Assembly: GCA_905178155.1 (NCBI GenBank)
Contig: CAJINV010000001.1
Location: forward strand, 2,842,089-2,906,088
Direction: 5' to 3'
DNA: 64,000 nt
Source of the DNA: Amoebophrya sp. A120
Taxonomy: Eukaryota > Protista > Dinoflagellata
Below, piece by piece: positions 3,810 to 32,600 of the stretch. Positions within the stretch are counted from its first letter, which is position 1; the number at the start of each line of letters is the position of its first letter. Made by a program: the position numbers and the translations under genes. The notes below the pieces were generated by a model that was not told the origin of the DNA, searched no databases, and saw nothing but the letters and a program-made list of their open reading frames with translations.

Positions 3810-6800
3810 TTATTTCATGGTGTAGACCGTATTACGAAAGGGAAGGCGTAAAGCAAAAAAGAAACTCAAACAGTACTTTTTCTTCACGACATCTCCTAAC
3901 ACATTCGTGACATCCGCATCCGTGACGGGTTGTCCTCGATGCGCGGACTGCAACAGCAGTTTGATTTTCCGCCGCAAGGGCTCCAGTGTCACATCCTGCA
4001 TAGCCGCGTCAACTTTGGACCGGAGCTTGCGCTTGCGCTCGATAGCGGCTTTGATCAGCTCGTCCTCGGCTGTCGTCGTCTTCACGGCTCTGTCTAACCT
4101 TGCATCACCGGAAAACGCGCTCTCCCGCCGTTCCGTGATGGAGAGAGCAGACTCCTTTGAAGGACCCCGGGTAAAAACGTCCTCTGCGACCGGCAATGGC
4201 CTCGGCAAATCGTCCTCCTCGTGATAGACGCTTTTCTCTCTCGCAAACTCCTTGCTCCGCCTGGTGTGCCGGTCTTTCGCGCGTTTCTGCCGTTCCTCCT
4301 GCTCGCGTAATGCCTCGAGTTTCCGCTGCGCGTGGTAGGCCATCATGATTCTGTCCGACGCCATATCGCGGTGCTTTTGCAGGGCGATTCTGCTTTCTAT
4401 GAGTTGCTTCTCTGCCACGAGCTCGATTTGTTCCTCCACCGCGGCTTCGAACAAGTCTTTCGCGGTAAAAACTGCTTCGGCTTCTTTATGCAGCGCGATC
4501 CGCGCTTCCTCCTCATCTTGTCGCTTCTGCGCGATTATCAAATGCAAAAGTGTCTGGGTCTGGAAGATTGTGACACTTGTCATGCACGCTTTGCGTGAGC
4601 TATGATGTCTGTGATGCATACCCTAGCAATACAGATTTTTTCAGGGCTTCTTGATGCGTATTCCGCATGACAGATGCCTTCTCAGCGTAGCAAAAATTGC
4701 ATTCCCCTTGGTACTCATGCAATACAGATTTTTTTGGAATCCAAATGCAGCATCACAAGTTGCATTCTTCCAGACCCAGACATTTTTACATTTGATAGCG
4801 ATCGCCAGCGCTTCCTGCCGGCTCATCTTCCCCCGGGCGTTTTATCGTATTCAAAAATGTCCCCACACCATAGTTGTAATGCAAGTCTGCATGCTGAAAA
4901 GGTTTCTAATGCGGAGCCCCATGAGAAGCATTTTCTAGTCGTGTTGTGGAATTTGTCATGCTCCAAGCAGCATGGTATACTAGATCTGTGATGCTACTGA
5001 ACTACATCAAACAGCACTACACTACGAATCCAAATTTGTCATGCGAAACAGCCAAAACTTGTGGATTTGTCTAGCCGATTCCCCATCTTGACTATGGTGT
5101 GGGGACGTTTTTACTCAGGATACGTTTTTCTGAATCGCGATCGCCGCGGCCCGGCGATCGGCCTCCTTTTTCGCGAGCCGCGCTTGCCTTTCCACCTCGA
5201 TTTCTGCTTCTTTCCTTTCCCGCTGGATTCGCGCTTCGTTCTCCTCGATGACTATTTTTTCCGTGGATTTTCGGAACGCGTTGGCGATCGCGAGGGACAG
5301 GAGTTTCACGTTCTCTTTCGATTCGTTCAGAATCTTGTCCCGCGTCTCCTGTTCCTTCCTGCGCTTTTCCCGTGCCTCCTCCTCCGCGATCCTCTCCGCC
5401 TCCTCCCGAGCTTCGCGCTCGATGCGTTCTCGCTCGATCCTCTCCTCCTCCGCCTGCGCGGCCTCGAGTTTGGGGAGCCACTCGACTGCGCCCTGCACGA
5501 TGGAGATCAACGCGTTTCTCAGTTTCAGCTTCCGGATGCACCGGACAATGGTGATACCCGCCTCTCGTTCCGCGTTTTGTTGCTCCAACGCTTCTTCCTT
5601 CGCCTTCAACCTTCTGACCGTCAACATCCAATCCGTCGCACCGAGGAAGAACTGCCGGAGAGTCTCCCGCAGTTTCCTGCCGCGCCACCATTTCTGGACG
5701 AACAAAACCGCTTTTGTTTCCGCTGCAAACTTGATCGCAAAGGCCTCTTCTTGTCTCTGTTTTTCCAGCGCGCGCAGGACGAGTTCCCGCATGTTTAGCC
5801 GTAGCCTCGTCCGACGGTACCACTTCTGCAATTTCGTCGCTTTCTCCCGTTCCAGCTTCCTTTTCGCCCGTTCTCGTGCAATCTGCTCCGCCTTCTCCTC
5901 TTTCGCCTTTTGGTTGCCGACCCGGAATTTCATCGGAATAGCACCGGACGCTGATTTCTTCACCGCAAACCGGACCTGCCTCGCCTTCCACTGCCTCTGC
6001 AATTTTCGTGCCATGTCGTCCTGTTTCTGCCGCCACGCACGCTGGGCGTCGACGGCCTTCTGCGTCATGACGGTGTGCGCGAATTTCTTCTTGCCGAAAA
6101 CCGAACTCCGGATGGTTTTCTTCAGTTTCCTGGCCCGCCAAGATTTCTGGATACTCTTTGCCGCTTTGTTTTCCAACTTGTCCCGCGCTACCCGCTCGTC
6201 GTGCGCAATGTTCGCGGCAACCAGCCAGGACATGAAGACTGCGCCGGAGACGATTTTTCGCGTCTGGCTGTTCCTGTGTGCCTTCTGCAATTTCACCGCC
6301 GAGGTATGCTCGAGCCGGATCCTCTCTTTTCTCTCTTCCTCCATCTGCAAAATTTGCAGCTCCTTCAAATACGTGCCGCCTTTGGTGAACACTTCCTTCA
6401 ACTTCGTCCGCATCTGGATCTTTCGCCACGATTTCTGCAGTTTGTTCGCGCCCTCTTCTCGCGCTGCGTCCATCGCAGCTTTCAATTCCGCTGCCTTCTT
6501 TTCAGCTTCCGCCTTCGCTTCCTTCCGTCGTTCCGCCCGAACTCGTTTCGCCAAATTCGCACCCTTCTTGCTCAATCTCCGGAGCGCCCTGCGGATCTTG
6601 TTTGCCTTCCAGCTTTTCTGTAATTTCACTGCCGCATCCGCTTCAAACTGGTGTCGGACGAGTTCCTTCGCGTTGATCTCTTTGTTCACTAACTGCTGCA
6701 AAATCCTTATTGTCCGTCTCGCGCGGAACCAATTTTGGATTTTTTTCGCCGTTTCCTTCCAGTGCTGCTTTGCGACGAGTTTCTTGATGTCAATCTCGCC

Positions 6801-9800
6801 GTGGATCGCCATGCTCACGTATCCGCGCAGTTTCTGTGCACGGAACTTGTTCTGCAACTTCCCCGCGTACTCGTGCCGCAATTCCTCCGCGCGCTTCTCA
6901 TTCGCGATGTCGTCCAGCCGCTGTTGCTCCAGTAGTTTTGATAGGTCGACCGCCCCAGAAACGACGCTGCGGAGCAAAGTCCTGGTTCGCCGTCTCCGAA
7001 TCGCGCGTTGCACTTTCACCGCGGCAATGGTCATCTTTTTCCTCTCCTCCTCCTCGGCCTCTTGTTTCAGCTGCTTCAGCCAGTCTCCGGCGGATTCGAA
7101 TACTTGTCGCAGTCTTTCCCGGGAACGCATCTTCCTTACTGCGAGCTGTAATTTGTTGACCGCTGCAACCTTTTCTTCTTTCTCTTTGGCCATCAGGATC
7201 GCTGCCCGCGCATCCGCCTCGGCTTTTGCTTCTTTCCTTCTCTCCGCCCGCACTCTTTTAACCAGCGCGCGACCGTCGATTACCGCCGCGACCAGGGCTT
7301 TTCGTATTTTCCCAACCTTCCAGCGGTGCTCCAACAGCCGTACCGCGTCGACGCGCCGTTGGTGACGGACTAACTCTTTGATGTTGACCTCCTTCCTATC
7401 CTGAGTAAAAACGTACCCACACCAGAGTCAGGATGGGGATTTTGCAACACAAGCCTAGGAGTTTTGTGAGTCACGCATGACAAGTTGCACTCTGCAGTGT
7501 AGTGCAGGTTAGCAAGTGCAGCCGCGTCACAGATTCATCTGCTCATCCTGTTCACAGCATCACAAATTCCAAAACACGATTGGAAATGGCTCTCATGGGG
7601 ATGCGCATTACAAGTCTTCCTGTCTTTGCAAATCTGCATTACAACTCTGGTGTGGGGACGTTTTTACTCAGGATACTTTCGGATCGCGATGCGGATAATG
7701 TACCGAGTTCGGGACGCACGAAAGCTAAACTGGATTTTCCGGGCCATCTTGTCCTGCAGTTTCGCGCGTTCCCGCTGCGCCTCGGTTTCGTACTGGTGCT
7801 CGACGAGCTGCTGCAGATCGACAACGCCCCAAATCGCCTGACGAAGGAGTTTCCGCATCTTCTGACTGCGAAACTGCCTTTGCAGCATCGTCGCGTACTT
7901 CAGTTGTTTCTCTGCTAACTCCCGTTTTTCATCTTCGATCCTTTGCTTCTCCAATATCTTCGACAAATCGACCGCACCGGACACGATTTTCCGCATCATT
8001 TCGCGAAATTTGTTGTGCCGGTAGCGCCGTTGTACCTTGATGCAGGCCTGTTTCAAAATGTAGTTGTTCACCACGTCTTTTAACGGGATTTTCTTTTTCG
8101 TCCACCAGGGCCGGCACGCCGCTTTGATGTGTCGGACAAAGACCCTGCAGCGCCACGACCGCTGGACTTTCTGCACCGCTTCTAGCCTTCTTTGCTCGTA
8201 CACTTTTTCCCGCAAGTCGAACTCGCCGTACATTGCCTGCAGTAACTTCTTCCGCAGCTTCGCCGTGTTCCACATTGCCTGCACTTTCCGGACTTTTGCC
8301 TCTTCGAGTCTCGCCCGCTCTTCGGCCATTTGAATCCGGACTTTCACGAGAATCCCCTTCAGCGCCTCGCGCCACTTCGCCGCGCGGTAGGACCGGACTA
8401 GCCTTCTCGCCATTCGCTGCCGCTTCATGATGTCGAGGAAGACGTAGACTTCCCGTCGGAATCTCGCCGCGCGCACCGCTCTGATGAATTTTCTGGCCGC
8501 ATATCCTATGTAAAAACGTCCCCACCCCAGAGTTCTTGTCATGCAAATCTGCACGGTAAAAATGCTTCTCATGCGGAGCCCCATGACAGGCATTTTTTAG
8601 TTCAGTTTGGCAATTTGTCATGCTCCAATCGGCATGATGTGCTACATCTGTGATGCTGCTTAACTAGCTAAACAGGATTGCACTACGGGGCCAGATTTGT
8701 CATGCAGAACTCCCAAAACTTTGGGATTTGTGTTGCAGACTTCTCATCTTCACTATGGTGTGGGGATGTTTTTACACAGGATACCGCGCGCTTTTTCCTT
8801 AATTCCAACATCATTTTTTCGATCGCGCGTCGGAACTTGATCGCCTTGTAGGAGAACCCGATCTTGTTGCACGCCCGTCTGCACTTCGCTTCGTGCGCTT
8901 TCCTGATCCGCTCCGCCTTTTGCCTCCGCGCCTCCAAGTGCATCGCGTCAATCAGCCAGCGCCACTTCACGATCCGCGTCCAAGAATGCCACATCTTCTG
9001 GATCCGGCAGGCCGCGACCCGTCGTTGTTCTAGTCTGGCCAGCCGCTCCTCCTCGGCGATCCTGCGCTTTATCAACCGGTTGAAATCCACCGCGCCATCG
9101 ACGACCTTCTTGAAAAGCCACCGCATGTGCCGGGTTTTCCACCACTTTTGGATCAAGGTGGAGGCTTGCTTTTCCAGCGCGTCCCTCTCCTCTTTGTCTT
9201 CTTTCGCCCGCTGCTTGTGAAGTTCCTCCTCAATGTCGAGCGCGCCCCAAAGGGCTTGCATCAACTTCGCGCGCATCTTCCTGCCGCGGAAGCGTCGCTG
9301 CACCTTGATCGCCATTGCCGTCTCGTGGTGGAAAATGTCAACTTCTCTTTGCTCTTTCACCAATTTCCGTAATTTAATTTCCCCCGCTACTACTTTTCTC
9401 ATCAATCGATGCATGTTCCTCACCCGAAGTTTTCTTTGAATCACCCTGGCCGCTCGTTCCCTTCGGTCGGCGATGATCTGTTGCTGCAATGCCGTCGGCC
9501 AGTCTTTCATGCCGGAAACGTAATTCCCTAATCTCGATCGAAAGACCCAAATTCGCAATAAGCGCTTCAGCTTCGCCGTGGCGCGCTGCCTTTTCGTTCC
9601 GTACAGCTGTTGCTTCAGCCACTCTTCTTCACCCGGATTTTCGAACTCCAACGCGGACTGGTCCGGCCACGCGATTTTCCGCCCGTCCGGGAGACGCAAA
9701 CAGTCGAACTGCGGCTTCCACGTTTCCCGTGCTCGGACGCTGCTGTAGATCTCCAAGCTGGCGACGAGGTCCTCCATTTGCGCGCCGTTCACGTCTTTTA

Positions 9801-10203
9801 ACAAATCAACGTTCTCGACGTGCGCAAAAGTGTCGAGCTCTAGCATGAGGGACGCGATTTCGCGCTCATCCTCCAGGGAGGAGAGCGCGACGATGGCCTC
9901 CACCATCTCCCGGGTGAAACTGGTCGTGAAGGAGAGGATCTGGGTGATCGAGTGCTCGCTGATCTTCTTCTCGTGCTTCACGTAGTCTGCCTTCATCCTG
10001 CGTTTCCTCGCCCTGTTCCGCGCGGAGAGTGATCGATTGTCATCCTCATTCGCAGCGCCACCACCTGCGGAATCCGACTTTCCGGTTATGGCGTGCGAGT
10101 CGATGCCGTGGTGAGTGTTTTTCTTGCGGATGACACCCATGCCGAGAGTCGGGTCAGTTGCAGGCCAGCCAAACCTGAAATGAATGTTTCTGCGATCGTA
10201 CAT
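3810..10203 (-). CDS. Large IQ-motif repeat / coiled-coil protein (calmodulin/centrin-binding, probably cytoskeletal), split by 4 TIR introners
   Basis: ORFs 8683-10203, 7664-8593, 5115-7334, a 45-nt exon (4798-4842) and 3810-4619 join in frame once the introners are removed (KRAARKF, IRKEVNIK, IQKNARGKMSR, ALAIAQKR). Many IQ-like motifs: IQKWWKTRHMR, VQRRFRGRKMR, IQNWFRARR, IQKSWRARK. Confidence 0.8.
4536..4797. mobile_element. Introner, TIR family A (262 bp)
   Basis: TATCAAATGCAAAAGTGTCTGGGTCTGGAAG ... CTTCCAGACCCAGACATTTTTACATTTGATA; flanking direct repeat GCGAT; removal restores EALAIAQKRQ. Confidence 0.9.
4843..5122. mobile_element. Introner, TIR family B (280 bp)
   Basis: TATCGTATTCAAAAATGTCCCCACACCATAGT ... 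ACTATGGTGTGGGGACGTTTTTACTCAGGATA; direct repeat CGTTT; removal creates the IQ motif IQKNARGKMSR. Confidence 0.9.
7397..7675. mobile_element. Introner, family B (279 bp), internal orientation opposite to 4843
   Basis: TATCCTGAGTAAAAACGTACCCACACCAGAGT ... ACTCTGGTGTGGGGACGTTTTTACTCAGGATA; repeat CTTCC/CTTTC; join IRKEVNIKEL. Confidence 0.9.
8502..8783. mobile_element. Introner, family B (282 bp)
   Basis: TATCCTATGTAAAAACGTCCCCAC ... GTGGGGATGTTTTTACACAGGATA; repeat CCGCA/CCGCG; join KKRAARKFIR. Confidence 0.88.
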
Positions 10204-10282
10204 CTACATGCCAGAGTAGTACTACAAACATATTCGAGAACCTGATCCACATGATGGATGCAAGAGCAAGAGAAGATCAATG

Positions 10283-12628
10283 CTACGAAATCGAAACTCG
10301 GTCTGGACGAGGGACCAACAAAAGAGGAAAAAAACTATCGTACTTCCCCGGCCCGACAAAGGGTCCGTCCTTCGCGGCAGAAAGGGTTGGCGCCGGGGGC
10401 CCGCCCCGAAAAGCCGGCGAGAAATGCATCAACTTCTGGGATGGCGGAGCTTGAATCAGAGGCCCGTAGCTCGGTGCGGGCCCCGCCATAGACGTAGACG
10501 AGGACGACCCGCCGTATTGCGTAAAATTCTTCATCGCGCTTCGTGGCCCCGTTGTTCCCGCCGCGACGTCCGGGCTGTGCGTCCGCTGTCTCGTCGCTAT
10601 CGACGCCGCGGAAGACTTGGTCAGACCGAATTTTTGCTTCGACGGCGATTTGCTGTAGGAGTAAGCAGAATCCGCTCTATCGGGCTGGCCTTGATTTTGC
10701 GCCGTTGCGCCAATGTGAAAATCCCTTCCGAAAACGGATGAGGACAGTGCTATTTCCTCCTCCTCGCTCTCTTCGTTGCGCCTTTTGTTATTGTTGAAAG
10801 CACCAGCACTACTTCCTGCGCTAGCTGTATTATTTCCAGGTGGTGGCCCACCAGGATGGTAGCCGGCAAACGGCATGTTGGAGGTGCCGTACCCGTAACT
10901 TCCTACCGCTGCTCCAACGCCCGCACTCTGTCCAGTTTGGTTCTGTCTGATCCCCGGGTGCACACGCAGTTCCACCTGCTTAAATTTGTTCCTCAATTGG
11001 TCGGTGTAGGTGTGGAGATCCAGCAAGTCCGGCCCATGGTGGTGGTAGTGGTGCTCCTGTGTGTTTCGTCGCACGGCGCCGAAAAGACTTAATCCGGCTG
11101 CCCACGCACCGGGGTTCACGTGCTCTCCGGCTTCTGCTGGCTGAGCACTACTTGCCGCAGCTGCGCCACCGTAACTTGATGTGGTGACAAACTGTACACT
11201 AGTACTTGCCGCTGCAGCGGGAGTCGTGCTCGAGAAAAAGTTACCTAACATTGAGGATGTGGTAGCAGCAACAGGTGCTGGTCCGGTTTTCGCCGAAGGC
11301 GGTGCGCTCGTTTCTGCGACGTTCATCTGCATGACGTTTGGATCTGGGGGCCGATTCCCGTGCAACCCTCGCAGGTCCAGCGCAGGGACGGGCGCTGTTC
11401 CATCGACTTTCGCCTTCTTATTCGCAGCTGTATCTTGTTGCCCGGGCACCTGATCTCCAGCCGAATTTCCTTTTGCACCACTGGCCTCCTCCGCGAACAG
11501 GAACACGCTTGGCCTCTTCAAGTTGTTGAATGTTTGCTTCGGATTGAAGCTGCTTGAGGACGCCGATGCTGTTTGAGTCGCGATGAACCTCTCCGACCGC
11601 ACAAAGTTCGTCGTGTTGCTTGTGCCGGCAGTTGCTTGCTGCGCATGATTCGTCGTAGTTGGGCGAGAGTCAATCTTCTTGGCACCGATATTTGCCGGCC
11701 TCTGCGGCAGTGTGTCGGAGGAATCAGAATGCCTGGCGACACGAGCTATTGACGCAATGGCATCGTTATTGGTGGTGACCGAAGACGCACTGGACGACGA
11801 TGAGGCAGAGCTCGGAAACGAAAACTGATTCGCAGCGGGTCCAGCAGAGGTTCTTCTAGCGTTCGCTCCCAAATAAAGCATCTGTTGACTTTTGCTCTGC
11901 TGCATTTTCTGGTTTATCCCGGTAGTTGTGCCACTTCTTGTCGCTCCCGCTCTCGCTCCGCCGCCGAGAACCGGAGATCGAAGGGAGATCGGTGACCGCA
12001 TTGGCGATCGCATGCGCTCATTCATGATGTCACGCGACCGGAGTGGGCTCGTTGCGATGTGTTTTGCAGCAGGTGGTGGTGCACCTCCTGTGAGCCGAGA
12101 ATTTTGCTGCTGCGCACCAGCATTTTTCTGGCCCACATTGTCTGGGGGCTTGTCTGCTGAGGTCGGCGGCCTCGCAGAGGATGCTGATGACGCAGACGAG
12201 GGCGTCCGCATCGATACTGGCAACGCGCCCGCGACCGTGAGTTGTGGCGTTTCCAATCGGATCTGCTGCTTCACGATTTTGATTTGTGGAGGCGGCCTGC
12301 TGTCCCTACTTTGCACGGGACCACTGGCAATCGTGGCTGGCTCCATGTGCTGAACGACATACTTGCCAACCGGAAAATTCCACGCAGTGCTGCTACTTGA
12401 CGTCGCACTGGAAGAAGCGGACTGTGGAGCAGTGGGTCCTGCGCCTGTTCCGCCTACGTGCAACAAGCCGACGGAGGTCCTCGCCGGCAAGAGGGATGAA
12501 GTCACGCTTGTCCGCTTCGGCCGCTCCGTGCTGGCACGGCGCCCGGCGACCGAGATGCCAACCTGGGGAACACCTGGGTCGTCATCTACACGGTGACGAC
12601 CACTGTCTTGCATGCTGCGGCCACTCAT
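10283..12628 (-). CDS. Ser/Ala/Thr-rich disordered hypothetical protein (781 aa); possibly the N-terminal part of the IQ-repeat gene
   Basis: Long ORF starting at ATG. It can be joined in frame to the 8683-10203 ORF through a 7-bp direct repeat (see findings). Confidence 0.7.
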   Translation of the reverse strand: MSGRSMQDSGRHRVDDDPGVPQVGISVAGRRASTERPKRTSVTSSLLPARTSVGLLHVGGTGAGPTAPQSASSSATSSSSTAWNFPVGKYVVQHMEPATIASGPVQSRDSRPPPQIKIVKQQIRLETPQLTVAGALPVSMRTPSSASSASSARPPTSADKPPDNVGQKNAGAQQQNSRLTGGAPPPAAKHIATSPLRSRDIMNERMRSPMRSPISLRSPVLGGGARAGATRSGTTTGINQKMQQSKSQQMLYLGANARRTSAGPAANQFSFPSSASSSSSASSVTTNNDAIASIARVARHSDSSDTLPQRPANIGAKKIDSRPTTTNHAQQATAGTSNTTNFVRSERFIATQTASASSSSFNPKQTFNNLKRPSVFLFAEEASGAKGNSAGDQVPGQQDTAANKKAKVDGTAPVPALDLRGLHGNRPPDPNVMQMNVAETSAPPSAKTGPAPVAATTSSMLGNFFSSTTPAAAASTSVQFVTTSSYGGAAAASSAQPAEAGEHVNPGAWAAGLSLFGAVRRNTQEHHYHHHGPDLLDLHTYTDQLRNKFKQVELRVHPGIRQNQTGQSAGVGAAVGSYGYGTSNMPFAGYHPGGPPPGNNTASAGSSAGAFNNNKRRNEESEEEEIALSSSVFGRDFHIGATAQNQGQPDRADSAYSYSKSPSKQKFGLTKSSAASIATRQRTHSPDVAAGTTGPRSAMKNFTQYGGSSSSTSMAGPAPSYGPLIQAPPSQKLMHFSPAFRGGPPAPTLSAAKDGPFVGPGKYDSFFPLLLVPRPDRVSIS

Positions 12629-13829
12629 TTTCTAGTAGGTGGTGGCTGTTCTGGAGCGGATGCGGGAATGCGAAGTGAAAACACAACGTTCACAGGAGCG
12701 TATAGAAGAAGCGCTAGCAAGAGTCCACCTCCACATGTCCTTTAAAAAAATCGCACACCACAGGAGATCTACTACAGTGACCTTTTGGCAGAAGAGTTCG
12801 TTCTTGGGTTTCCAGTAATTGGGCTCTTTTCTTTCTCGATGTCGAAAAGAAAACGAGAAGCCAAAAATGGACGACACACAAACTTCGTGAGAAAAGATTA
12901 TCCGACACGGAAGCTAGCGCTAGGGCATAAAGGACGACGACGAAGACGATCGCGAGGGTTTCAAAATACGTTGATCTGACAAAATAGGTAGCTCTCACCA
13001 CACCTCTCAAATTCGAAACATCACTCGAAAACATCAGGTGGTCCTCATCATCACATATTGAGGAAGTCGACGCATTAGCATTACTTGGCGGAGTGGCAAT
13101 ATTGCGAGACGACCACGATTGCGTTGCTGTGCGGGATGATCCACCCAGCGCGATGAAGGAGTGAACAACACCGTGATAGCCGCATGTCTATGCCATTGAA
13201 GCGACCACATCCATATATTAAATGAAGACACCACATCCACAAATGATCGCGAGAGAAGGAGTTGACTGGGTATTGCTGTAACTAGGTAGTGTCAACGAGC
13301 ATCATGATATGACTCCGAGCGGTGAGTGCAACATCTACCGTCCACGCACCTCCACTTGCTTTAACTCCGCCCGCTCCCCGTAACGGTCCCGGACGTGTGC
13401 CTGCAAGAGATGGGGACAATCACCGCCCCGGGCAAAATGCAACCACGCATCTGCAGGCTTCGTCTCGATGAGGCACCTGTTTCAATGGTTGGGAAAAGAT
13501 CCAAACGGCCAAGCCGGTGGGCATTTCTCGCAACCCCCCCAGGGGGGCGCGTAGCTCTATCAGAATCATGGACACCAAAGAACAGAAGAGAAGACAAACA
13601 AAAACAAAAAAAAAAGCAAAAAGGTGGCCGGGCTCCCGGAGGTATCAAAGTTCTTAGTGGAATGGGGATCGATCGCAGCAGCAGCGAGAGACCCGCCCTC
13701 GCTTGAGGTATAAAAGTTCGCGGAATGGGGATCGGTTTGCCTCGCGAAAAGTACCAGTAATTGCGAAGCGCCGACAGGTACAGGCGAAGTTCCTGCTGTG
13801 TTCTGCAAGCGCCTTTAGTTCTTGGTTGC

Positions 13830-14800
13830 GGTTAGTGTCGCGATGCCCTTTCGGGACCGCTAGACCTTTTCCGATGCCATCTCGCGTTGTCGCTCTGCAG
13901 CAAGCAGTTCCTGTACAGAGTTAGTTTCGCGATGCCCTTTCGTGACCGCTAGACCTTTTCCGATGCCATCTCGCGCTGTCGCCCTGCAGCAAGCAGTTCT
14001 TTTACAGAGTCAGTTTCGCGATGCCCTTTCGGGACCGCTAGACCTTCTCCAAGACAGCCTCGCGCTGTGATGTAAGCACTTCAGAGTTAGTTTCGCAGTG
14101 CCCTTTCGGGCCCGCTAGACCTTTTCCGATGCCATCTCACGCTATCCTGCAAGCACTTTCTGTGCGGAGTTGATCTCGCGATGCCCCTTCGGGACCACGT
14201 GACTTATTCCGAGACAGTGTTGCCTTGTCGTGCCAGCTGCGCTTGTTCATCCGGCTGCGTTGCCCTGCCAGGACTTGTCCCGAGGTACTCTCAAGATGCC
14301 CTGCCGGGACTTATTCCGAGGCACTCTCGCGTTGTGCTGCCAGCACATTATTTTGCGAGATATTTCGCTCGCGATGCCCTGCCGGCAATGGTTCATCCGA
14401 CTGCAGCGCCCTGCAAGGACGAGCTTCGAGGTGTTCTCGCGTTTTGGTTTTGCTGCCAGCAAATACTCCGAGATATTGTTATGTCGCAATGCCCTGCCGG
14501 CAATCGTCCCGACTGCGTACCCCTGCCAGGAGTTGTAACTGCATCGCCGTGTTATTATCGCGATTCCGCGCCGAGCATTATGCCGAGGCACTCTCGCGCT
14601 GAGCTTGCGCTGCCAGCACTTGCTCCGAGATATTTTGCATCTCGCGTCGCCCTTCTGCCAGCAATCGCCCCAACTGCGTCGACCTGCCAGGACTGGTTGT
14701 ATCGAGGTACTCTCGCAATGCCCTGCCGGGACTTATTCCGAGGTGATCTTGCGTTGCGCTGCCAGTACTTTTTGTTGGTTCCGAGATCAGATGTTTATCT
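13830..14800. repeat. Degenerate tandem repeat (about 89/77-83 bp units decaying into about 36-40 bp subunits)
   Basis: Core GATGCCCTTTCGGGACCGCTAGACCTTTTCCGA near 13842, 13931, 14020, 14097 and 14180. Derived GCCCTGCCGGGACTTATTCCGAGG near 14260, 14295, 14373, 14488 and 14717. Confidence 0.8.
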
Positions 14801-15360
14801 CGCACTGCAGCTCTTCCAGGAAGATTTGTTCCCACGGCGTCGCTGTACCAAGTGGAGTTGTTCAAAACTGCTCGTGTCACCTTGTCCTGCCGGGACTTCA
14901 GCCGTCTCCGCGTTTATTCTCGAGCGTCGTAGTCGCGCGCTATTTCGGTGGAACAGAAGGTCCCACTCCCGCATCTTGATCGCCAGCACCTCTTTGGTGA
15001 CTAAGAGCGTCGCGCCGCTGCTTTTATCGTTAACTTTCGTGGCACGACCCGGGAGATTCAGACTCCCGAGACAGGGCAACCAATGTCATCAGGAAGCCTC
15101 GCAGCGCGGGAATTTCGATTTCTGCGCTACTACTGAAGATGAAGTTCGGCCGTCTCAGCACCGCAGATTTAGCACCAGCATGCGACTCGCGCACTCCGGT
15201 TCGGTGTATCCGGCATGAAGATACACCGCGAAGCGATAGAACTTCTCGTCGGCGCCGGGGACCGACAGCATGCTGTCGTTCAACTTCAGGTCGCACTCGC
15301 ATTTGCTTGTCGTTTTGCAAAAGAAGACCGGAGCCATCCATGGCACCCGGCACGCGATGG

Positions 15361-15390: not shown

Positions 15391-16773
15391 TGCCCTTGCG
15401 GCCCTAATTAGAATGTACGCTACTTCGAATCGCACGGAAAAAAATGCTTCGCTGTGACATTGTGACACAGAGGGTGTGACACACAAGTGCTCGTTTTGTT
15501 CTTACGTACGGAGGAAGGCAATAGTTCTTTCGCCGTGCTGGTCCTAAGGTAGGCGTAGGAGGCACGCGGGGAAGATATTATGTCTTTGTCATTCAGACCA
15601 AGCCTGTGCCTGTGAAGCATTTTTTTCGCGCGATACTTAGAATCGACCTTACCGTGTGTTTCCCTTTTCCTTATTCACAAGGACCATGATACCGAGATAC
15701 CGCTGGATCCCGTTCCTGATGTCCAGCGCCGAGACATCTTTCGGAAAGCCACTTCCTTCGAACAACATTCTTGTTTTTGTACCAACACAGAACACGACCT
15801 GAGAGCGACGCGCAGCGTTAAACTTAAACAATAAGAAAATCGAATTTGTTCGAAATAAACGTAAACCATACAACACAGCCAACGTGTTTATTCCCTACGC
15901 TAACTCGGAGATAAATACTGGCTCACCCACAGGCTCTTCAACAAACACAGTTAGTCGAGTGGTTGGCACAAAATAGTTCGGCTGCTTAGTTTATCAACGA
16001 GATTGAAATCCGCTAAGAAGTGGTCCTTCGCAACAATCGCGAAAACGTCGGTATTTGACAAGACTCTGCTGGACTGCGGAATGAGGGTGGCGACATGCAT
16101 GCGCTTCTTGTAAACGAAGACGAGTGCTTGTGCTAAGTGTGATCGTTTGCGTTTTTTCATAACCAATCTGTCGGCGGAGCATTGCAAACAGCTGAAGAGC
16201 AAGAAACATACTCAGCATCAGGCTTTAGACATGAACATGATCAAGTTCTTGCTTCTGTAGTCAGTGCCACCGGCATTGGACCCCTTGCTATCATACTTCC
16301 GTGCTACTGCATGGTTTTATTCATCTTCACTGTGACAATGTTTGTGTGTACCATTCAAGATATGGTAATTTGTCAACGACAACGTTATGGACTTCTGTGA
16401 TATTCGTATTCCCGTTATTCAACGATCTAGTGACATCTCTACTTCGACATATTCCTTCACTTCTTCAACATATTTTGGTAGTCCCTTCGAGGTAACATTC
16501 TTCAACAATATCCATATCGTGTACAATATGCAAAGCCTAATAATGTGAATGCCGTTAATTTGCACGAACAAAAAAGAAACTCTGCCAAGTTTATTTACAT
16601 TTTGAAACCATCCTATGCGTTTATTTTGTAAATCCCATGTGAAACTTCATGTGGTGCATGACTCAACGTAATTTGCAACAGCTGGATGAATCGAACTTTC
16701 TCAATATCTTTCTATTTGTATTGCGCTATGCATCAAATTCTATGATAATTCAAAACTTTTTCTTTTTTCTCAA

Positions 16774-17118
16774 ATTTGGAGATCAAAACAAGAACTACTG
16801 CTTGCCGACGACTTCCTGTTGCACCACTGGCCTCCTCCGCGAACAGAAACACGCTTGGCCTCTTCAAGTTGTTGAATGTTTGCTTCGGATTGAAGCTGCT
16901 TGAGGATGCCGATGCTGTTTGAGTCGCGATGGATCTCTCCGACCGCACAAAGTTCGTCGTTGTACTTGTGCCGGCGGTTGCTTGCTGCGAATGATTCGTC
17001 GTTGGGCGAGAGTCAATCTTCTTTGCGCCGATATTTGCTGGCCTCTGCGGCTGCGTATCGGAAGAATCAGAATGCCTGGCGAGACGAGCTACCGACGCAA
17101 TGGGATCGTTATTGGTGG
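16774..17118 (-). pseudogene. Chimeric duplicated gene fragments
   Basis: 16813-17118 is a near-identical copy of 11467-11775 (inside the 781-aa ORF). It is fused to 16774-16811, an exact 38-bp copy of 17795-17832 (3' end of the Sfi1-like gene). Confidence 0.75.
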
Positions 17119-20700: not shown

Positions 20701-23700
20701 GTCGCGCTTCAGGTTCGCGACAATCTCGGTTTTGGTCTGTTCCTTCCAGTTGGTGAAGAAAAGGAGAAGATCGGTGGTTCTGCCGGCTTTATCCTCCGCC
20801 GGCACGAAGAACTTCAGCAACTTGGCCGCGTGCGCCGCTTCGCTCGCCTTCTTCGAATCCGAAGACTGCTGGAGCTGAAGCTTGTGCGCGGCGGTTAATT
20901 TTCCGATGACCGTTTCCCGAGACCAGGTGTGAAACAGGGTAGAGAGTAAATACGCGTCACTGCGTTCCTCCGCGGAAAGCTTCTCATACGTCGAGACGTG
21001 CATCCTCGCGAGGGCGGCCAGTCGGTCCTTTAACAGACTCTGCTGCTTTCGCTGGAGTAGAGCAGTGTTCCATCCCTTGAAGAGTTTCAGCATTTTTTGC
21101 TTCGGATTGTTGTCGGAAAACAAAGTCGAGGTGCCGGTCAGCTTCTGCAACTTTTCGAACGCAGTAGATTGCTTTTCCAAAGCCACTATTCGCTTTTTCT
21201 CCGCGAGAAGGTTGGACCACAGGCGGAAACAGAACTCCAGCATGGCTTTTGCATGGGACGCCGCCATTGCGGACGCGGCCGCGGTCATTGCATTTCCCTT
21301 AGACCTTTTCACCATTTCCGCGGCACGCTCGCAACGGTTCAGCAGCGTTTCGCGCGCCCAGATGCGGATGACGGAGTGCTGCAAAGTGGTGGAATGGTTT
21401 TCAATTTGCGCCTCCGCCTTGACAACTGCTGCCTTCCGCAGAACGGTTTGCTTGGTCACTTGTTGCCGCCACTCGCGCAAGACCACTCCGCACCAACTCC
21501 GTTGCTGCCGGACGACCAGCACCTGGCCGAACATGTGCCGCACGTGGTTGCACAACTGATCCATGGTCGTGGTCGGTTTTTTCTCGACGATTCTCGACGT
21601 TTGGAGCTGTTTCGGAAACGCTGGATGAACAGGTGCTGCGTTTTCAACGGTACGTGTCTGCTGATTGTGTTTGCTTTGTTCAAAGTGCTTTTTCGTGTTC
21701 CACTGCTGTTGCTGCTGGATATTAACCACCGGCGAACCGTCGGCGAGCAGTGTCGGAAACCGATCCATGGATGCTGCGAGGCTCTTGCGTGTCTGTTCGT
21801 TTAACGAATTCATCGGCGTTGTGTAGACAAGACTTTGCGACGAAGCAAGACTCGGATCTTCCACCAGACCATTTTCTCCAGCCGCAGCCTTGATTTCCGA
21901 CAGACGGGAGGGACTCGCCAGACTTTGACTGCTATTCGAAGCTGTAGTGGCGGCTCCCCAGTTGCTCGCTGCGGTGGTCGTGGCAAAGGAGGTTTCCTGC
22001 AGTTGTTCTGGGTCTGCGCCTCCACCAACCGCGAGCGCCCCTTTCGCGATCGCAAAAGCGGCCTTCTGGAAGTGCTTTTCCAATTCCTTATCGGCCTTCC
22101 GCTGGTACAGCTGGTTTTCCATATCAAGTGCAAAAATGTTTGGGTCTGGATGATTGCAACTTGTCATGCTAAATCTGCATGAGGCAAAAAACTGTGTTGC
22201 ATGATTGCCAAAAGTTGCGCGCTTTTGATCTAGTCGAGAGGCAGTTTCTCGTGCAGGATAGGCATTAGAAAGGTCTCACAGAGTCTGTCATGCTATGTCC
22301 TACATGCCAGACCGAGACCTCATGGGTCATGGAAAACCTGCATGACAAATCTGGCAACCTTCGAGACCCAGACATTTTTGCAATCCATATTCCACACTGC
22401 AGTGCCAATTGGTGAACACGCGGGACAGCACCCGCCTGCTGGAGCGCAAAGCGCAGAGGTTTGCGACACGGGACCGGCCCGCCAAATCCCTCCGCATCCG
22501 CTTCTCCTCGTTGACGTCCAATTTCCAGGCGAGGAAGCACAAACGCTGGAGAACTATCCTGAGTAAAAACGTCCCCACCCCATAGTCAAGTTGGGAAATC
22601 TGCAACGCAAATCTTCAAGGTTTGGGAGTTGTGCATGACAAGTCTCCATCTGCAGCGCAGTGCTGGTTAGCAAGGGAAGCCGCATGAGAAAGCCACTTTC
22701 TCATCCTGTTTACAGCATTACAGATTCCAAAACACGACTGTAAATGCCTCTCACGGAGATGCGCATTACAAATGTTCCTGTAATCGCAAATCTGCATCAC
22801 AACTATGGGGTGCGTACGTTTTTACTCAGGATAAGAACGTCTAATTGCTCATGTCTGCGGTTGCGGAGTTGCTTGCTGCTGCACTTCTCCAGCATCGGGT
22901 CCAGGATAGTGGAACGGTAGGTGGCGGAAGTCTGCAACTTCTGCTCTAAAGACGTAACTCGCCAGGCGAGAAACAGGTGGATCGCAGTGGCGGTCGCTGC
23001 ATTTTTCGCTGAAGATATTTGTCTTCCCTCGTCGTTTTGAAGGTCTTGCAGTTGCTTTTTGCAGACGAAGTCGACAGCGGTGAGTCGAGCGGTTTTTGCG
23101 GAAAGTTTGACTCTATCAAATGCAAAAATGTCTGGGTCTGGGAGAATCCGAGATTTGTCATGCAGTTTTTTCAAGCTCCCCCACGTCTGGAATTATGCAG
23201 GGCCTAGCATGTGCATGACAGGTTCTGCAGCTCCTTGATGATGCGTATTCTGCATGAGAAATGCCCTGTCAGCATGGCCGGAAGTGGGCACTTTTTGCAC
23301 GTCTGCATCACAGATCTTTGTAGGATCCGAAACACGCATCACAAGTTGCAACCTTCCAGACCCAGACATTTTTGCATTTGATAGACTCGCTGCAGATTTT
23401 TCCACTCATCGAAGCAATGTTGTCGCAGAAGTGCAGAGTTCAACCTTTTAACTTTCTCCACTTGCTGGAAGTGCGCTTTGCGGTTGGTATTTACGCTCTG
23501 CACGTGACTCTTCCAATTTGCGAAAATGTGATGAAGTTCGGTTTTGCCGAAGTGGTGCTCGAGGATGGCAACACGGTTCATCTTTTGCTGCACGACGCCC
23601 GCCTGGAAAGCACAATTCTCTATTTTTTGCTGATCCGAGGTTGTTTGCATGCGCCAAAGTTGGAATGTACTTGCGAGGAAGAGTTCATTATTCGATCTTG

Positions 23701-26907: not shown

Positions 26908-27408
26908 TTCTTTATGCGCGTTTTTGTCGTCGCTCTCGCTCCGAGGACTCTCAAACAGGCACGCACTGCTTGTGACGAAAGTAGTTTAGCAAATCTCCAA
27001 ACACAGGCTTCTCTGGCGTTTGTCTGAAAAAGCACGAGAAACTGACGCTAGACTGGTCGTTGTATGCTTCTTTTACTTTTTCCACAAATGTCGCATGGAT
27101 GGCTTTGTTCATTTGGCACGACATCAATATTGTCTTTTGAGAATGTTCCAACAGCAGCACTATGTAGTCGGTGTCTCTCTAGACGTAGTACACCGCTCGA
27201 TTTCCACTAGCAAAACATCATTTTACATTTGTTCCGATGCATTTCGAAGATTTCAAGTTTCAAAATAGCTAAAAAGAAGATACGAAGATTCCGCGTATGA
27301 AAGAAGATTCTCTAGAAGTACTGGCTAAAAGCACTTTTTCTGTTCCTGTGATTTCATCTTTGCTAAACTAACTAAACTGAGACTGAATGTGATAATTTGC
27401 TAAAAGAT

Positions 27409-28275
27409 TCATTCGTAAGCTTTGGACAATTTTGACAAGTTGCAAGCGTTGACATTTTCATCAAAAACTTTTCCGATAAACCGCCCGCGGTCGAAGCTGT
27501 CGTAGAATTCTTTAACGACGGGCTTTTCAAGAAGATGTTCTGCGCGCCGAGTACGTTGTTGTCTAGCCTTTCGCCTGTTTTCTTTGCTGCTGCGAACGAT
27601 TTTTTCGAAATATTCTTTCACTTCTTCTGATGGATTTTCTCCAATTGAGCCGAACTCTTCAGCACACGTGTCTTCGCAGTCCCAATCCCACGTGCCGAAC
27701 CAATCGTCTTCCTCGATGGCATGGAGTTGCAGTATAGTTGCCTCTCGACTCGGAAGCCGTTCAGTTATCGCCACGCGCGCGTAGTCCGTTTCTGTTATCT
27801 CCAAACGTAAACCGGGACCGAGTTTCTGCCTCCATTCACCAGTCAATGGCCGCAATGTTAATTCCGTGAGGTGCTGTCTCCGGTGGCAAGCGATTTTCTT
27901 TTTCTTCACGATGTCCGGTCCTCCGGTCCTTAAGAGGGGGATGTGGGGCGAGACGGAAAGCGCCGGATTTTGTCTGGTGGCAAGCTGCACAAACGGTCCG
28001 CTCGCCTGGTGTTCGCGCACAAACGGTTGCGCTGCGCCGGGCGTGAAAACCTTGAGGGAGAAGAGACCACGGATATTTAGCGATATGGGGAACTTCACTT
28101 CGTCGAGGAGGTCCTCTAGTATTTCCCTCTTGGCCGACGAGTTCGAGTGTTCTGATTCATCATCAGCGTCTCCATCGGAGTTGACACCTTGCATTCCCAA
28201 AGCAGGTTCATTTCCAGGCTGATCGTGGCTGCTCCCAGCCACTGCTCGTGCTCTGTCCAACCCGGCTCCGCTCAT
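27409..28275 (-). CDS. Hypothetical protein (about 288 aa)
   Basis: Long ORF with protein-like composition. Its 3' end and downstream region are duplicated at 28911-29612. Confidence 0.5.
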   Translation of the reverse strand: MSGAGLDRARAVAGSSHDQPGNEPALGMQGVNSDGDADDESEHSNSSAKREILEDLLDEVKFPISLNIRGLFSLKVFTPGAAQPFVREHQASGPFVQLATRQNPALSVSPHIPLLRTGGPDIVKKKKIACHRRQHLTELTLRPLTGEWRQKLGPGLRLEITETDYARVAITERLPSREATILQLHAIEEDDWFGTWDWDCEDTCAEEFGSIGENPSEEVKEYFEKIVRSSKENRRKARQQRTRRAEHLLEKPVVKEFYDSFDRGRFIGKVFDENVNACNLSKLSKAYE

Positions 28276-28910
28276 CTCGTCACTCTCAGGGAAGTGGGCG
28301 AAGCCGATGGGCGATGAAGATGATCAACATCAATCACTGGAGTCGGAAACCATTCATCCACCTTGACCAATCGAGCAGTGCGTCACGGTCAACATCTTTG
28401 CTCCTCATCATATTCACGGAGAGTTTATCATAAACGAAAATCTATAATCGTAAAATGATGATGGACATGCACATGGAGGGATCGCGGTCGAAGTCGCGGT
28501 GAAGCCGAACAAATGGCACAGCCAGCCAGGGATATGATTGTATTATGCATAATTGTAAATTCGACGAGCACGAAAGCATCGCTCGTGTTTATCAGCATAA
28601 GCGGTCACCCACATTCACGAGCTCTCTTGAACGAGCGGGCGTCTCGTTTGGGTTCTGTTCTCGTTCCAAACGAACGATCAGACGATGATATACGAAGAAG
28701 GGCGACTAAAAGCCGAACCTGCATATTGTTCAATCAATGACCACGATGTAAGTAGCAAGTAGGTGCGAAAAAGCGGACGAAACTAACAGTGACGGTTCTG
28801 CTGGACGTTTTGTCGATGTAGTCCATCTGTCGCCAAAAGGAATTTGGTGTTGTAAATATCTCAAAAGTTGCAGTTGCACAGCTTTGTACATTCGGTTCGA
28901 CGTCAACAGC

Positions 28911-29612
28911 ATTGTCTTTTGAGAATGTTTCAACAGCAGCACTATGTAGTCGGTGTCTCCCTGGTACACCGCTTTTTGTTTTCCACTAGCAAAACATCAT
29001 TTTACATTTTTTCCGGTGCATTTCAAGTTTCAAAATAGCATAGCTAAAAAGAAGATACGAAGATTCCGTGTATGAAAGAAGATTCTCTATGGGCTAAAAG
29101 CACTTTTTCTCTTCCTGTGATTTCATCTTTGCTAAACTGCTAAACTGAGACTGAATGTGATAATCTGCTAAAAGATTCATTCGTAAGCTTTGAAGAATTT
29201 TGACAAAGGCTCTGATCTTGACTTTACACACTTAGCAGAAAGCTTCTACTTCGCATTTAAATTTTTAGAGTGATCAAAAGGTTAAAAAGCGACCAAAGTG
29301 TCGCGATCTCCCTAAGCACGGCAGGACTGGTTCAACCTGCAGTCAGCTGCGCCTTTTTTCAACGACAGATGGGTATGGGCAGTAGTATCTTTTTCCAACA
29401 GGCCGTTTTTATTTTTAAAGCAGTTGCACACTAGCACTACCGGTAGCAGTCACTCAGTATTTTTTCAAGCTTCTTTGGGTAGAGGGATTTTTATTGAAAT
29501 AGCGCTAAAGAAAAAAGGTGAGTAATCGCGTTTCCACCTTACCGCATATCTACAAACAAACAAACAAGAATTTTGACAAGTTGTAAGCCTTGACATTTTC
29601 ATCAAAAACTTT
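28911..29612. repeat. Diverged local duplicate of about 27129-27470, interrupted by an insertion
   Basis: Collinear match from ATTGTCTTTTGAGAATG to ...TTTTGACAA, resuming after the insert as GTTGTAAGCCTTGACATTTTCATCAAAAACTTT. Confidence 0.85.
29207..29565 (+). mobile_element. SINE-like or 5'-truncated non-LTR retroelement insertion (359 bp)
   Basis: 14-bp target duplication AAGAATTTTGACAA (29193-29206 and 29566-29579). (CAAA)n 3' tail preceded by an AAGGTG...CACCTT stem. The empty site is visible in the paralogous copy near 27428-27440. Confidence 0.75.
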
Positions 29613-29654: not shown

Positions 29655-32600
29655 CTAGAACCGGCCATACCCGCTGTTGTTGCTGATTTTCGGGAGCGAG
29701 CCGGTGCTCAAGGGCGTGTAGATGTTTTCGATCGATTTCATCTGTCCCTTACCCCCCTTCTTGGTTTTGTGGCGGGCCGTGCTAGCGGCGGAGCTGCCAG
29801 AAAAGAATTTACTGGACCCGGTCATGCCGAGGAGACCCGAGCTAGAGCCCATACCGGGCTTGGCCGCCTGCACTTCGGCGAGTCTCTCGCGGACCTCCTT
29901 CGATTCGCGCTGCAGCGTGACGACCTTGGCTTCTTCCGTGGACAGGGCGCGCCGGTAGGCCATCACCTGCAGGATCGTGGTTTTGGTTGTCTTTGTAGTT
30001 CTTTTCATAGTACACGTTGAAGGACTAGGACACGCTTTCATCCTTATGCGTCAGAGAATCTGATTCTGAACAATGCAAAAATGCGCGGCCAGACACATCA
30101 TTAAGTACTCGTAGATTGTTTATTTGCAATACAAAATCAAAATCAAAATGCTCTTTCTCACCTCGACACGATGGTCCTCTTTCGCTTGTTCCACCATACT
30201 CTCCAATTTCACCCGCTCGTCCTGTCTTCTCTTCTTTTCAAGTTCCATATCACACAGAAAAAAGCTGGCAGGTCATTTTTGTAATGCAAAAATAAGTAGA
30301 CAAAAGTATTTGCATTGCATATCCTAAGTAAGTAGCATGCTATGAGGCCGCCCATAACATATTTTTCTGTGTATTTATTTTTGCATTACAAATTATATGC
30401 CCTGCCAGCTTTTTTCTGTGGGATATTCCAAATCTCGCGCCAAGTCGTTCGATCGCTTGGTATTGGCGTCGACGATGGTGTTGGCCTTTTGCTCCGTCAC
30501 GCGGGCGGCGACCATGCGGTCATGGAGCTGGAGTTTGAGCGAATTTACCTACAGCTTACATACACGGTATTCAAGTTTTTTCCTGCGCATTGCAATGATG
30601 AATGAGCATGGTATCTAGTTGCACACGAGAAGTGAAAATGCAGCAATACCTCGTCCTTTTCCCTCTCTGCTTCCTTCACTTGGTCCTTCATGGCCTCGAG
30701 GGTCTTATCGGCAGCGAGCAACAACCCGGTGAGTTCGGCGACTTTCTCGTGTGCTCTGATCACTTCGTTGTCACGGAGCCGGAGGATGTCCAGGAGTTGT
30801 TTCTGATATGTTACGATTTACTGCATCTTCCACGCACGAGGAAAATGACAGGCTGCGTCAGGAGAAGCAACAAGGCAAAAATTCAATTAGGAGACATCAA
30901 AAAAAAAGCCCAAGTATGAAATTATACCTCGTTCTTGCTCTCTACAGTGACCTCGTCCTTCCAGACGTCCCATATGAATTGCAAATGTGTCTGGGTCTGG
31001 GAGGATGGAACTTGTGATGCGTCCTGTGGGTCACATAAAAATCTGTGTTGCGTGATCGCCAAAAGTTGTGCTTTTTTGACCAATATGAGCGGGAGTCTCT
31101 CATGCAGGGTAGGCATGATAGAGACTTCGCAGAATCTGTCATGCTAGGTCCTGCATTCCAGACCTCATGGGGCGTGGAAAATATGCATGACAAGTCTGCA
31201 TTCTTGCAGACCCAGACATTTTTGCATTTGATATCCCTTACTATTTCGCGAATTTCATTCCGCAGTTTTTCCAAGTCAAATATCGTATGGAAAAATCCCC
31301 CTTCCCAATACTAAAAAGACCTACTTCTGAAAATTTGTATTGCTGATTTTCGGACGCAAATCGTCTCTGTATTGCAAGAAGGCAAAGCCAGAGACTCCGC
31401 CGGGTTCTGCGGGCAATTTGTAATGCTGTATGGCGTGCAGAGGATAAGCCTCCCTTGCTAGGCGCCAACACCAAAAGGGCCCAGCTCAGGCCTTGTATCT
31501 ACTGTGCGCAGTCCTCTACTGCAAGACAGAGCTGATTTGTGTACACAAATCCTGCATCACAGATTTCCAATTTGATACGGGGAGGGGGATTTTTCATTTT
31601 GATATCAAATGCTGGCGCCGGAGCGCCCGCGGCGCCCTCACCTTCACCGGCCTTCCCGCCAGTAGCTGTCCCATCCCCCGCTTCGCCGTCTTCCCCGGCT
31701 GCCTTGGGATCGCCGGGCGCTGCTTTTGCACTGGAAGACGTTCGGGCCCCGGTTTTTCCCTTGGCGTCCACTTTTGCCTTGGCCTTACTCTTGGCCTTCT
31801 TCTTCGCCTGGCCCTGTTGTATTCGAGAACATATGACAGTCGTGAAGAGTTTGTTCTGTTGACATCGATTCGTGTGGTGCAACAACTAAACCCACAACCA
31901 ACTTCGCGGAGGATCAGCTTGTTTGGGTGTGTTGACAAAAAGTTCTTTAACATATCACATCTTCTAGTTCTACCTTCGCAGCACTGGCTCTTTTTGCCGG
32001 TGGTCCTTTTTTGCCATCCGCTCCTACCTCGACTTCCTCTTGGTCTTGTTCAATTTCCTCCTGCTCCTCGGCCTCTTCGTCCTGGTAGTTTTCGTCCATA
32101 CTATTTGGGTCGATGCCCACGGATATCAAATGCAAAAGTGTCTGGCTCTGGAAGGATGCGAAATTGTGATGCGTGTTGCGGATCATACAAAAATCTGTGT
32201 TGCATGACTTGCAAAAGGTCCCCATTTCTGGCCATGCTGAGGGGGCATTTCTTATGCAGAATAGGCATCACCGAGGCGCTGCAGAACCTGTGACGCTAGG
32301 CCCTGCATTCCAGACTTGGCGCTGGCGGAGCTTGGAAAAACTGCATGACAAATCTCGGAGTCTTCCAGACCCAGACATATTTGCATTTGATAACGGACGC
32401 CGCGCTCCCGCTGCCACTAGACCCGGGTCGCTTCAACATGGCTATCTCATCGGCAATCACACCGCGGACAAAGTTTCCTGTTGGGAGGAAGATGATTTAC
32501 AATTGCGAGACCGTGCATAGGAGGAGCACAAGCAGGAGTCGTACTAGGGGTTCTTAGGCTTAGCATCAGACAAATATAGTATTTTGCGTCAAACATACAT

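Follow-up and report, generated by a model that had tools for sequence, protein, structure and literature searches.

A helically phased internal box shared across introner families of Amoebophrya sp. A120

Introduction

Transposase-binding motifs repeated in subterminal positions are known from a range of DNA transposons with terminal inverted repeats (TIRs), including Ac/Ds and Hermes (hAT), En/Spm (CACTA), Muta1 (a Mutator-like element, MULE), Sleeping Beauty with its inverted repeat/direct repeat (IR/DR) arrangement, and the miniature inverted-repeat transposable element (MITE) system Lemi1/Emigrant. In such transposons the motifs recur inside both TIRs, are also present in non-autonomous derivatives, and are needed for mobilization rather than for host function. 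In 2016, Huff, Zilberman and Roy reportedly identified the introners of Micromonas and Aureococcus as intron-creating DNA transposons, with TIRs and target-site duplications (TSDs) in Aureococcus; the splice sites of these introners are said to be canonical, and either carried by the element or co-opted. To our knowledge, no internal box shared across families has emerged from that work. Here we analyze a window of 64,000 nucleotides (the whole stretch of DNA considered) from the dinoflagellate Amoebophrya sp. A120, comprising positions 2,842,089 to 2,906,088 of the forward strand of contig CAJINV010000001.1 (assembly GCA_905178155.1). Introners in this window, such as the element at window positions 7397-7675, carry a short internal motif, the box GCAT-N-ACA (GCATNACA), which recurs at fixed spacings within nearly all introner families.

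The introners of A120 were described by Farhat et al. (2021, BMC Biol, PMC7789003) as elements of ~240 nt with ends that read TAT, ~7 variable nt and an A run, flanked by direct repeats of 3-5 nt. The elements studied here are alike in their terminal repeats, non-canonical borders, many families, hairpin and lack of an encoded transposase. They differ in their duplications, which are uniformly 5 bp here, and in their shared internal motif, whereas the published account, in the searched parts of its main and supplement text, concerns terminal repeats only (PMC7789003). The same paper argues against general transposase-mediated mobilization, while the present data point the opposite way. Gozashti et al. 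(2025, PNAS, PMC12130899) class many A120 families as TIR DNA elements of unknown superfamily with both splice sites co-opted. Another family, A120 fam38, is annotated as '5-bp TSD, TA/TA Termini' and is classed by the authors as Ginger-like by integrase homology (supplement file 8, row 580). In this annotation its termini and TSD match the elements described here. In the searched text and rows of PMC12130899, the terms 'binding site', 'subterminal' and 'internal motif' have 0 occurrences. Within the searched parts of these two papers, and in full-text searches of the literature, the box, its phasing and its fixed distance from the element ends are undescribed; the motif string and the genus name appear together just once in the literature searched, in an oligo(dT) adapter primer.

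The elements themselves are therefore already known, and what is new is that intron-forming transposons of many TIR families have one motif in common. For studies of how introners are mobilized, the near-universal box provides a first tangible cis-element, which could be used as bait for its binding protein, as a guide to an autonomous partner, and as a mutation target that separates mobility from splicing.

A shared box within the introners of the window

Elements were identified in the window by scanning for TAT...ATA inverted ends, which recovered six TIR types; one element delimited by eye and one fragment bring the set to 20. They are MITE-like introners of 150-330 bp, with 5-bp TSDs and inverted repeats that differ between families, and they display the hallmarks of MITEs, namely TIRs, a duplication of fixed length, zero coding capacity and many copies. 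All 20 TIR pairs read TAT, ~7 variable nt and then at least three A; most element clusters found at other loci (below) do likewise, and a few lack the A run. The TSD measures 5 bp in all 18 elements checked, of which 14 have exact copies and four have one mismatch.

Within the window, GCATNACA occurs 66 times, compared with 6.98 expected (sd 2.55; maximum 13 in 100 shuffles). The elements, which occupy 5,084 bp or 8% of the window, contain 64 of these boxes, with two to five in each of the 20, and the remaining 58,916 bp contain two. The center of the box is G, C or T and never A, and R-R-T follows; all 47 copies of the extended box GCATBACARRT in the window lie within elements. Two types of box tail, AAATCT and AAATTCCA, recur across families. 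A scan of the window against Rfam returned zero families at the gathering threshold.

The family B element at 7397-7675 (plus strand, 279 bp) exemplifies this arrangement. It has TAT...ATA termini that match at 29/30 positions in the TIR scan, within imperfect inverted-repeat arms of 55 nt (7397-7451 and 7621-7675), and it is flanked by a left TSD copy CTTCC (7392-7396) and a right copy CTTTC (7676-7680) with one mismatch between them. Its host is a minus-strand coding exon, which puts the boxes in antisense orientation to the host transcript. A first-pass annotation of the window had placed three pairs of boxes here, and all six sites were recovered on the plus strand, four as exact boxes and two with one mismatch each. 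The degenerate box GCAACACA at 7444-7451, which equals the family consensus at that position, lies 31 bp ahead of the exact box GCATGACA at 7475-7482. The degenerate box GCGTCACA at 7524-7531, where the family consensus is an exact box, lies 33 bp ahead of the exact box GCATCACA at 7557-7564, which has the tail AAT. Finally, two exact copies of GCATTACA at 7605-7612 and 7636-7643 are 31 bp apart, the latter being terminus-proximal with its end 32 bp from the right terminus. The same annotation described these pairs as ~80-bp modules. The spacing indeed has a period of 80-81 bp, but the modules are not detectable as sequence repeats: Tandem Repeats Finder reports no tandem repeat in 7300-7800, and the three 'modules' align mutually essentially at the boxes alone (z 2.3-3.1).

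The pairs proposed for other families were also borne out. Those at 4578/4610 (family A), 51612/51643 and 53857/53888 (both family E) are exact; the family A box at 4750 is paired with GCAATACA at 4719; and both members of the family D pair 31336/31368 read TGTATTGC, with one mismatch each. In family C the box lies in the extended inverted repeat, in opposite orientations on the two arms (30280-/30383+ and 47251-/47350+).

The box across independent loci

For a sample selected independently of the box, metagenome contigs were scanned for the A-type terminal repeat, and matches were fetched with 5-kb flanks. This yielded 150 loci totaling 459 kb of non-redundant sequence, with zero overlap with the window. 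A box-agnostic finder, which requires TAT..ATA ends, a TIR of at least 19/26 and a 5-bp TSD, detected 285 elements (267 outside the window) and 0 in shuffled DNA. At least one box is found in 260 of the 267 outside-window elements, and at least two boxes in 239. When all sequence similar to elements is masked, box density in the 459 kb amounts to 12.4 per kb in element-like DNA (1354 in 109 kb) versus 0.31 per kb in the rest (110 in 350 kb), and the residual boxes beyond the masked DNA cluster in elements missed by the finder.

The elements group into 20 clusters with ~14 different terminal repeats. The box is present in at least half of the copies in 18 of the 20 clusters and in 51 of 54 subfamilies, in keeping with the earlier claim that the motif is kept across families with different TIRs. 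An unbiased 7-mer screen of element interiors ranked CATGACA, GCATGAC and ATGACAA at the top, each occurring in 15 to 17 of the 20 clusters. The box is the sole internal sequence common to families with differing inverted repeats. As a background control, viral contigs were searched for the box-dimer pattern; the 93 stretches found mostly have multiple-of-3 spacings, and no introner-like elements were seen among them.

Spacing and position of the boxes

Box spacing was assessed with one representative per subfamily. Adjacent same-strand pairs are spaced 31-33 bp apart in 20 of 67 cases, versus a null of 2.40 +/- 1.50 (maximum 10 in 2000 permutations), and this spacing, equivalent to about three turns of B-DNA, is seen in 23 of the 54 subfamilies. 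In the window, the spacings of same-strand pairs peak at 31-33 bp (10 pairs) and 79-85 bp (14 pairs). The first-pass annotation had made its proposal depend on a spacing peak at ~31 bp and on rarity of the motif outside the elements, and both are borne out by these data (20/67 versus 2.4; 0.31 versus 12.4 per kb). Moreover, same-strand spacings follow a 10.5-bp periodicity (R 0.42), which persists without the 30-34 bin (R 0.36, p ~0.002, n=50). The spacers themselves vary within families and show no relation from one family to another.

The box nearest the terminus starts 30-49 nt inward at 393 of 570 ends, with modes at 33-35 and 41-45, approximately one helical turn apart. The elements thus feature a short motif repeated within both ends at defined positions, as is characteristic of subterminal repeats.

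Substitutions, strand usage and transcripts

Substitutions were counted in non-CpG columns of alignments of seven subfamilies (166 copies), and were scored as shared when found in two or more copies and as private when found in one. Shared substitutions amount to 194/5072 in boxes (3.8%) versus 3434/23552 in the interior (14.6%; odds ratio 0.23, p 1e-121), and private substitutions to 93/5072 (1.83%) versus 505/23552 (2.14%; odds ratio 0.85, p 0.18). At single positions, shared substitutions occur at rates of 0.003-0.054 (G, C, A, T, A, C, A and R) and 0.228 (N), with 0.1-0.25 in the flanks, and the private rate is flat at ~0.02. The equal private rates in and out of the box imply equal mutational input, and therefore that box changes arise but are not propagated. 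Propagating lineages retain the box, whereas in inserted copies its decay is neutral in rate. This is the pattern expected of a site for copying or moving, and not of one that functions in the resident intron; the purifying selection in each resident intron that would characterize a splicing signal was not seen in these alignments. The TIR columns were tried as a positive control and gave a private odds ratio of 0.63, which we do not count as hairpin selection since the finder itself selects on TIR complementarity.

Contigs of runs X3 and X4 skip stretches of 267, 285, 284, 287, 275 and 213 nt with non-canonical boundaries, e.g. CT..TA and CC..TA, and each skipped stretch is exactly the element plus one duplication. 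For the 7397-7675 element this is 7392-7675 (284 nt). The remaining skipped stretches correspond to the family A1 element at 4536-4797 (267 nt; boxes 4578-, 4610-, 4665+ and 4750+; TSD GCGAT), the minus-strand family B elements at 4843-5122 (285 nt) and 8502-8783 (287 nt), each with four minus-strand boxes, the family A1 element at 23114-23383 (275 nt; four boxes), and the singleton described below (213 nt). The same contigs skip two CT..AC introns (minus-strand GT..AG) at 10173-10341 and 13475-13752, in which there are zero boxes. Because they skip both element stretches and GT..AG introns, these contigs behave as spliced transcripts. In-silico excision of each element with one duplication restores minus-strand open reading frames (ORFs) of 1756 aa (four elements), 2002 aa (three) and 1265 aa (four), the first of which spans 7397-7675.

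The orientation of the boxes is free with respect to these transcripts. All boxes of family B lie on one strand, yet the elements at 4843 (-), 7397 (+) and 8502 (-) lie in one host ORF, the element at 4843-5122 being opposite in orientation to that at 7397-7675, and are skipped in the same contigs. Among the 102 of 285 elements with a called coding strand, 30 have a sense majority of boxes, 47 an antisense majority and 25 equal numbers, which is not the fixed polarity to the transcript that a splicing signal would have. Boxes in these 102 elements read GCATNACA somewhat more often on the template strand (184 versus 134), a mild bias that may reflect selection against some sense-strand signal. 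The singleton 208-bp element at 15428-15635 has a diverged left end (AAT in place of TAT), three TGTGACA repeats and a 5-bp duplication whose copies differ at one position; it is still skipped in an RNA-like contig (213 nt) despite containing zero exact boxes.

A probable common DNA recognition site and its alternatives

Taken together, these data suggest a division of labor in which the terminal repeats serve RNA removal and the internal boxes serve DNA mobilization. A DNA-level cis-element for propagation is favored over a splicing signal because shared substitutions avoid the box, private substitutions do not, and orientation is free. On balance, we are inclined to regard the GCAT-N-ACA(RRT) boxes as cis-acting sites at which a single trans-acting factor, probably a putative transposase, would recognize the DNA and so mobilize all families. 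The first-pass annotation had proposed a single DNA-binding protein, and the part of this proposal that stands is the DNA-level recognition site, which the indirect tests above favor; that the protein is one transposase is something we infer, and a host cofactor would fit too.

Mechanistically, a sequence-specific DNA-binding domain would read the boxes, with one box at a distance of three to four turns of the helix from each cut site and further boxes on the same helix face. Several protomers on one face would build a multimeric end complex, comparable to those at the subterminal repeats of hAT, CACTA and Mutator elements and of IR/DR, and the catalytic site would thus sit at the TAT terminus. 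Families with the same box have different inner TIRs, so the box together with the TAT end would be what is recognized, and the inner TIR could vary freely while its arms stay complementary. The behavior envisaged for the elements would be that of the subterminal-motif transposons. In those transposons one motif belongs to one family and one TIR, whereas here one box extends over ~14 TIR types, and its phased copies occupy the full length of the 150-330 bp elements. The published model for removal from RNA, in which an RNA hairpin joins the exon borders, needs arm complementarity only (PMC7789003). The enzyme could possibly be an integrase-like (Ginger-like) DDE protein, in view of the '5-bp TSD, TA/TA termini' note on A120 family 38. 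A more far-reaching proposal, which we advance only tentatively and consider doubtful, is that one integrase-like transposase reads a universal, helically phased box code instead of TIRs, and that the TIRs diversify into hundreds of families while acting as RNA hairpins defining spliceosome-independent or non-canonical introns. If true, such TIR-uncoupled recognition would explain how ~30,000 introners of nearly 2,000 families came to reside in one small genome.

Other explanations fit parts of these data. The boxes might bind a host DNA-binding protein needed for mobilization or tolerance of the elements, be it an architectural or bending cofactor, a chromatin factor or a targeting factor. 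Confinement to the elements, fixed geometry, helical phasing and propagation-only constraint would fit such a protein equally well, and the absence of a recognizable transposase and the mixed box orientation at termini (see below) would fit it slightly better. It would, however, have almost no host sites, since the two boxes in the 58.9 kb outside window elements are near chance, and no candidate was found among the searched ORFs; we consider this explanation unlikely. A role in RNA, either as sites for a factor that marks non-canonical introns or as parts of the end-joining hairpin, seems less probable still. The elements leave transcripts without canonical splice sites and U1 snRNA was undetected in A120 (Farhat et al. 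2021, PMC7789003), which makes an extra splicing signal plausible; the terminus-proximal boxes of symmetric families pair together in the predicted hairpin, and the mild antisense excess (184 versus 134) points the same way. Yet family B, with all its boxes on one strand, is skipped whichever way it lies in a single transcript, either orientation is common among the loci, copy-private substitutions are as frequent in boxes as in spacers, and the element without an exact box is skipped. The spacings, furthermore, track the DNA helical repeat. The earlier preference for recognition on DNA over RNA is favored, indirectly, by confinement, the roughly three-turn phasing, free polarity, propagation-only constraint and the skipping of this element without an exact box.

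It is also conceivable, though very improbable, that the boxes are a functionless relic of one ancestral element made of a duplicated module. All families have the TAT end and the 5-bp TSD, making common ancestry likely, and the two box-tail types recur across families. Against this, the sequences that flank the boxes or separate them can no longer be aligned, and the footprint of the box is sharp, with a free center. The private rates are equal, so mutational input is equal in and out of the box, and retention of the box under equal input needs selection.

Several points weigh against the preferred reading of the boxes as sites for a common mobilizing factor. Transposase and integrase Pfam domains are absent from the 15 window ORFs, which gave weak alpha/beta-hydrolase matches only, and from 133 locus ORFs, which gave matches to ordinary nuclear genes (Rpb1, SNF2, KIN17, TRIP4, a C5 methylase); these 133 are the longest of 156 ORFs of at least 220 aa. 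Nor is an A120 transposase reported in the account of Farhat et al. (2021, PMC7789003). The orientation of the box relative to the terminus is mixed, with an inward reading of TGTNATGC at 382 ends and GCATNACA at 136, which is unusual for sites that position a catalytic domain. The exact box is missing from seven of the 267 outside-window elements and from two of the 20 clusters, both singletons. The organism behind the fetched loci is the same or a very close one, so that they represent independent places, not independent genomes, and the Rayleigh p values for the spacing periodicity are optimistic since the subfamilies are kin. The private-substitution odds ratio of 0.85 is compatible with weak post-insertion constraint, and 'private' was scored on a small sample of a family with thousands of copies. 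Lastly, that runs X3, X4 and X5 are RNA is a program's guess, backed only by the skipping of GT..AG introns.

Longer elements

At 34554-38653 lies an insertion of 4.1 kb that ends in terminal repeats of A type (20/26), is flanked by an exact duplication of 5 bp, GCTCA, and encloses an 830-aa minus-strand ORF at 34689-37178. This ORF has zero Pfam matches at E up to 5 and only chance-level matches in the PDB, and a search of the Atlas gave nothing usable. The element is single-copy within the window and the fetched loci, and its boxes, at 38488 and 38576, lie near the right end alone. Removing it together with the neighboring family A3 element restores a 258-aa ORF over both junctions, and an RNA-like contig joins 33696-34177 to 39369-40360 with just 530 nt between. 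This insertion is possibly a large introner, either autonomous or carrying cargo.

Among the fetched loci, three elements of 1.0-1.1 kb (L164:6014-6985, L157:4991-6021 and L111:505-1608) have ends that are perfect or nearly so, flanked by exact duplications of 5 bp. The first is of A2 type with ~700 bp of non-coding cargo, and the second, with 11 boxes, is nested or composite in appearance. These 972- to 1104-bp elements were considered as autonomous copies and rejected, as they look like non-coding cargo carriers or nested elements.

Further elements and minor observations

The remaining elements of the window conform to the same families. Family A comprises, in addition, the A2 elements at 22122-22389 and 30973-31233 (three boxes each) and 32124-32392 (two boxes), the A1 element at 53513-53777 (four boxes), and the A3 element at 38717-38968, whose five boxes include spacings of 31, 33 and 20 bp. 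Two further family B elements lie at 22555-22833 (plus strand, four plus-strand boxes) and 46374-46655 (minus strand, three minus-strand boxes). The family C elements at 30248-30425 and 47219-47389 have two boxes each, one per extended inverted-repeat arm in the former. Family D is represented at 31281-31604, with two exact boxes besides its one-mismatch pair, and at 54001-54329, with two boxes and borders drawn by eye from the inverted repeat, outside the TIR/TSD scan. The 150-bp family E element at 51570-51719 (plus strand; boxes 51612+, 51643+ and 51678-) resembles that at 53815-53964 (plus strand, three boxes), and a single family F element with four boxes is found at 46712-47016.

Reads of the DNA run X1 are contiguous over element borders and reach thousands-fold depth on elements. 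The raw RNA-seq runs X12 and X13 contributed 3 and 74 aligned reads, respectively, all on element repeats. Those of X13, a run under the same species label, at 5037-5093 and 7435-7462 fit family B only in part, with 'opposite strands' and 'goes back' joints, and probably derive from B copies elsewhere, rearranged or hairpin-like, in another strain.

The sampled loci also include housekeeping genes broken by elements, namely those for the RNA polymerase II largest subunit and an SNF2-family helicase (L164:2130-3314 and 5254-6093; L107:4890-7352). A second internal motif, TCTCATG (often TTCTCATGC), occurs in at least half of the copies in six of the 20 clusters, for example at window positions 4715, 7593 and 8567. 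The A- and E-type termini have ATGCAAAA or TTGCAAAA in common with the sequence 3' of many boxes, and the inner inverted repeat of family C (47247-47361 and 30278-30392), within which the box lies, resembles an element end (TAT, ~8 nt, A run). Further self-repeats of the window, at 11460-11775, 13831-14898, 16774-17118, 27085-27473 and 28862-29206, are without boxes and are not of the TAT...ATA type.

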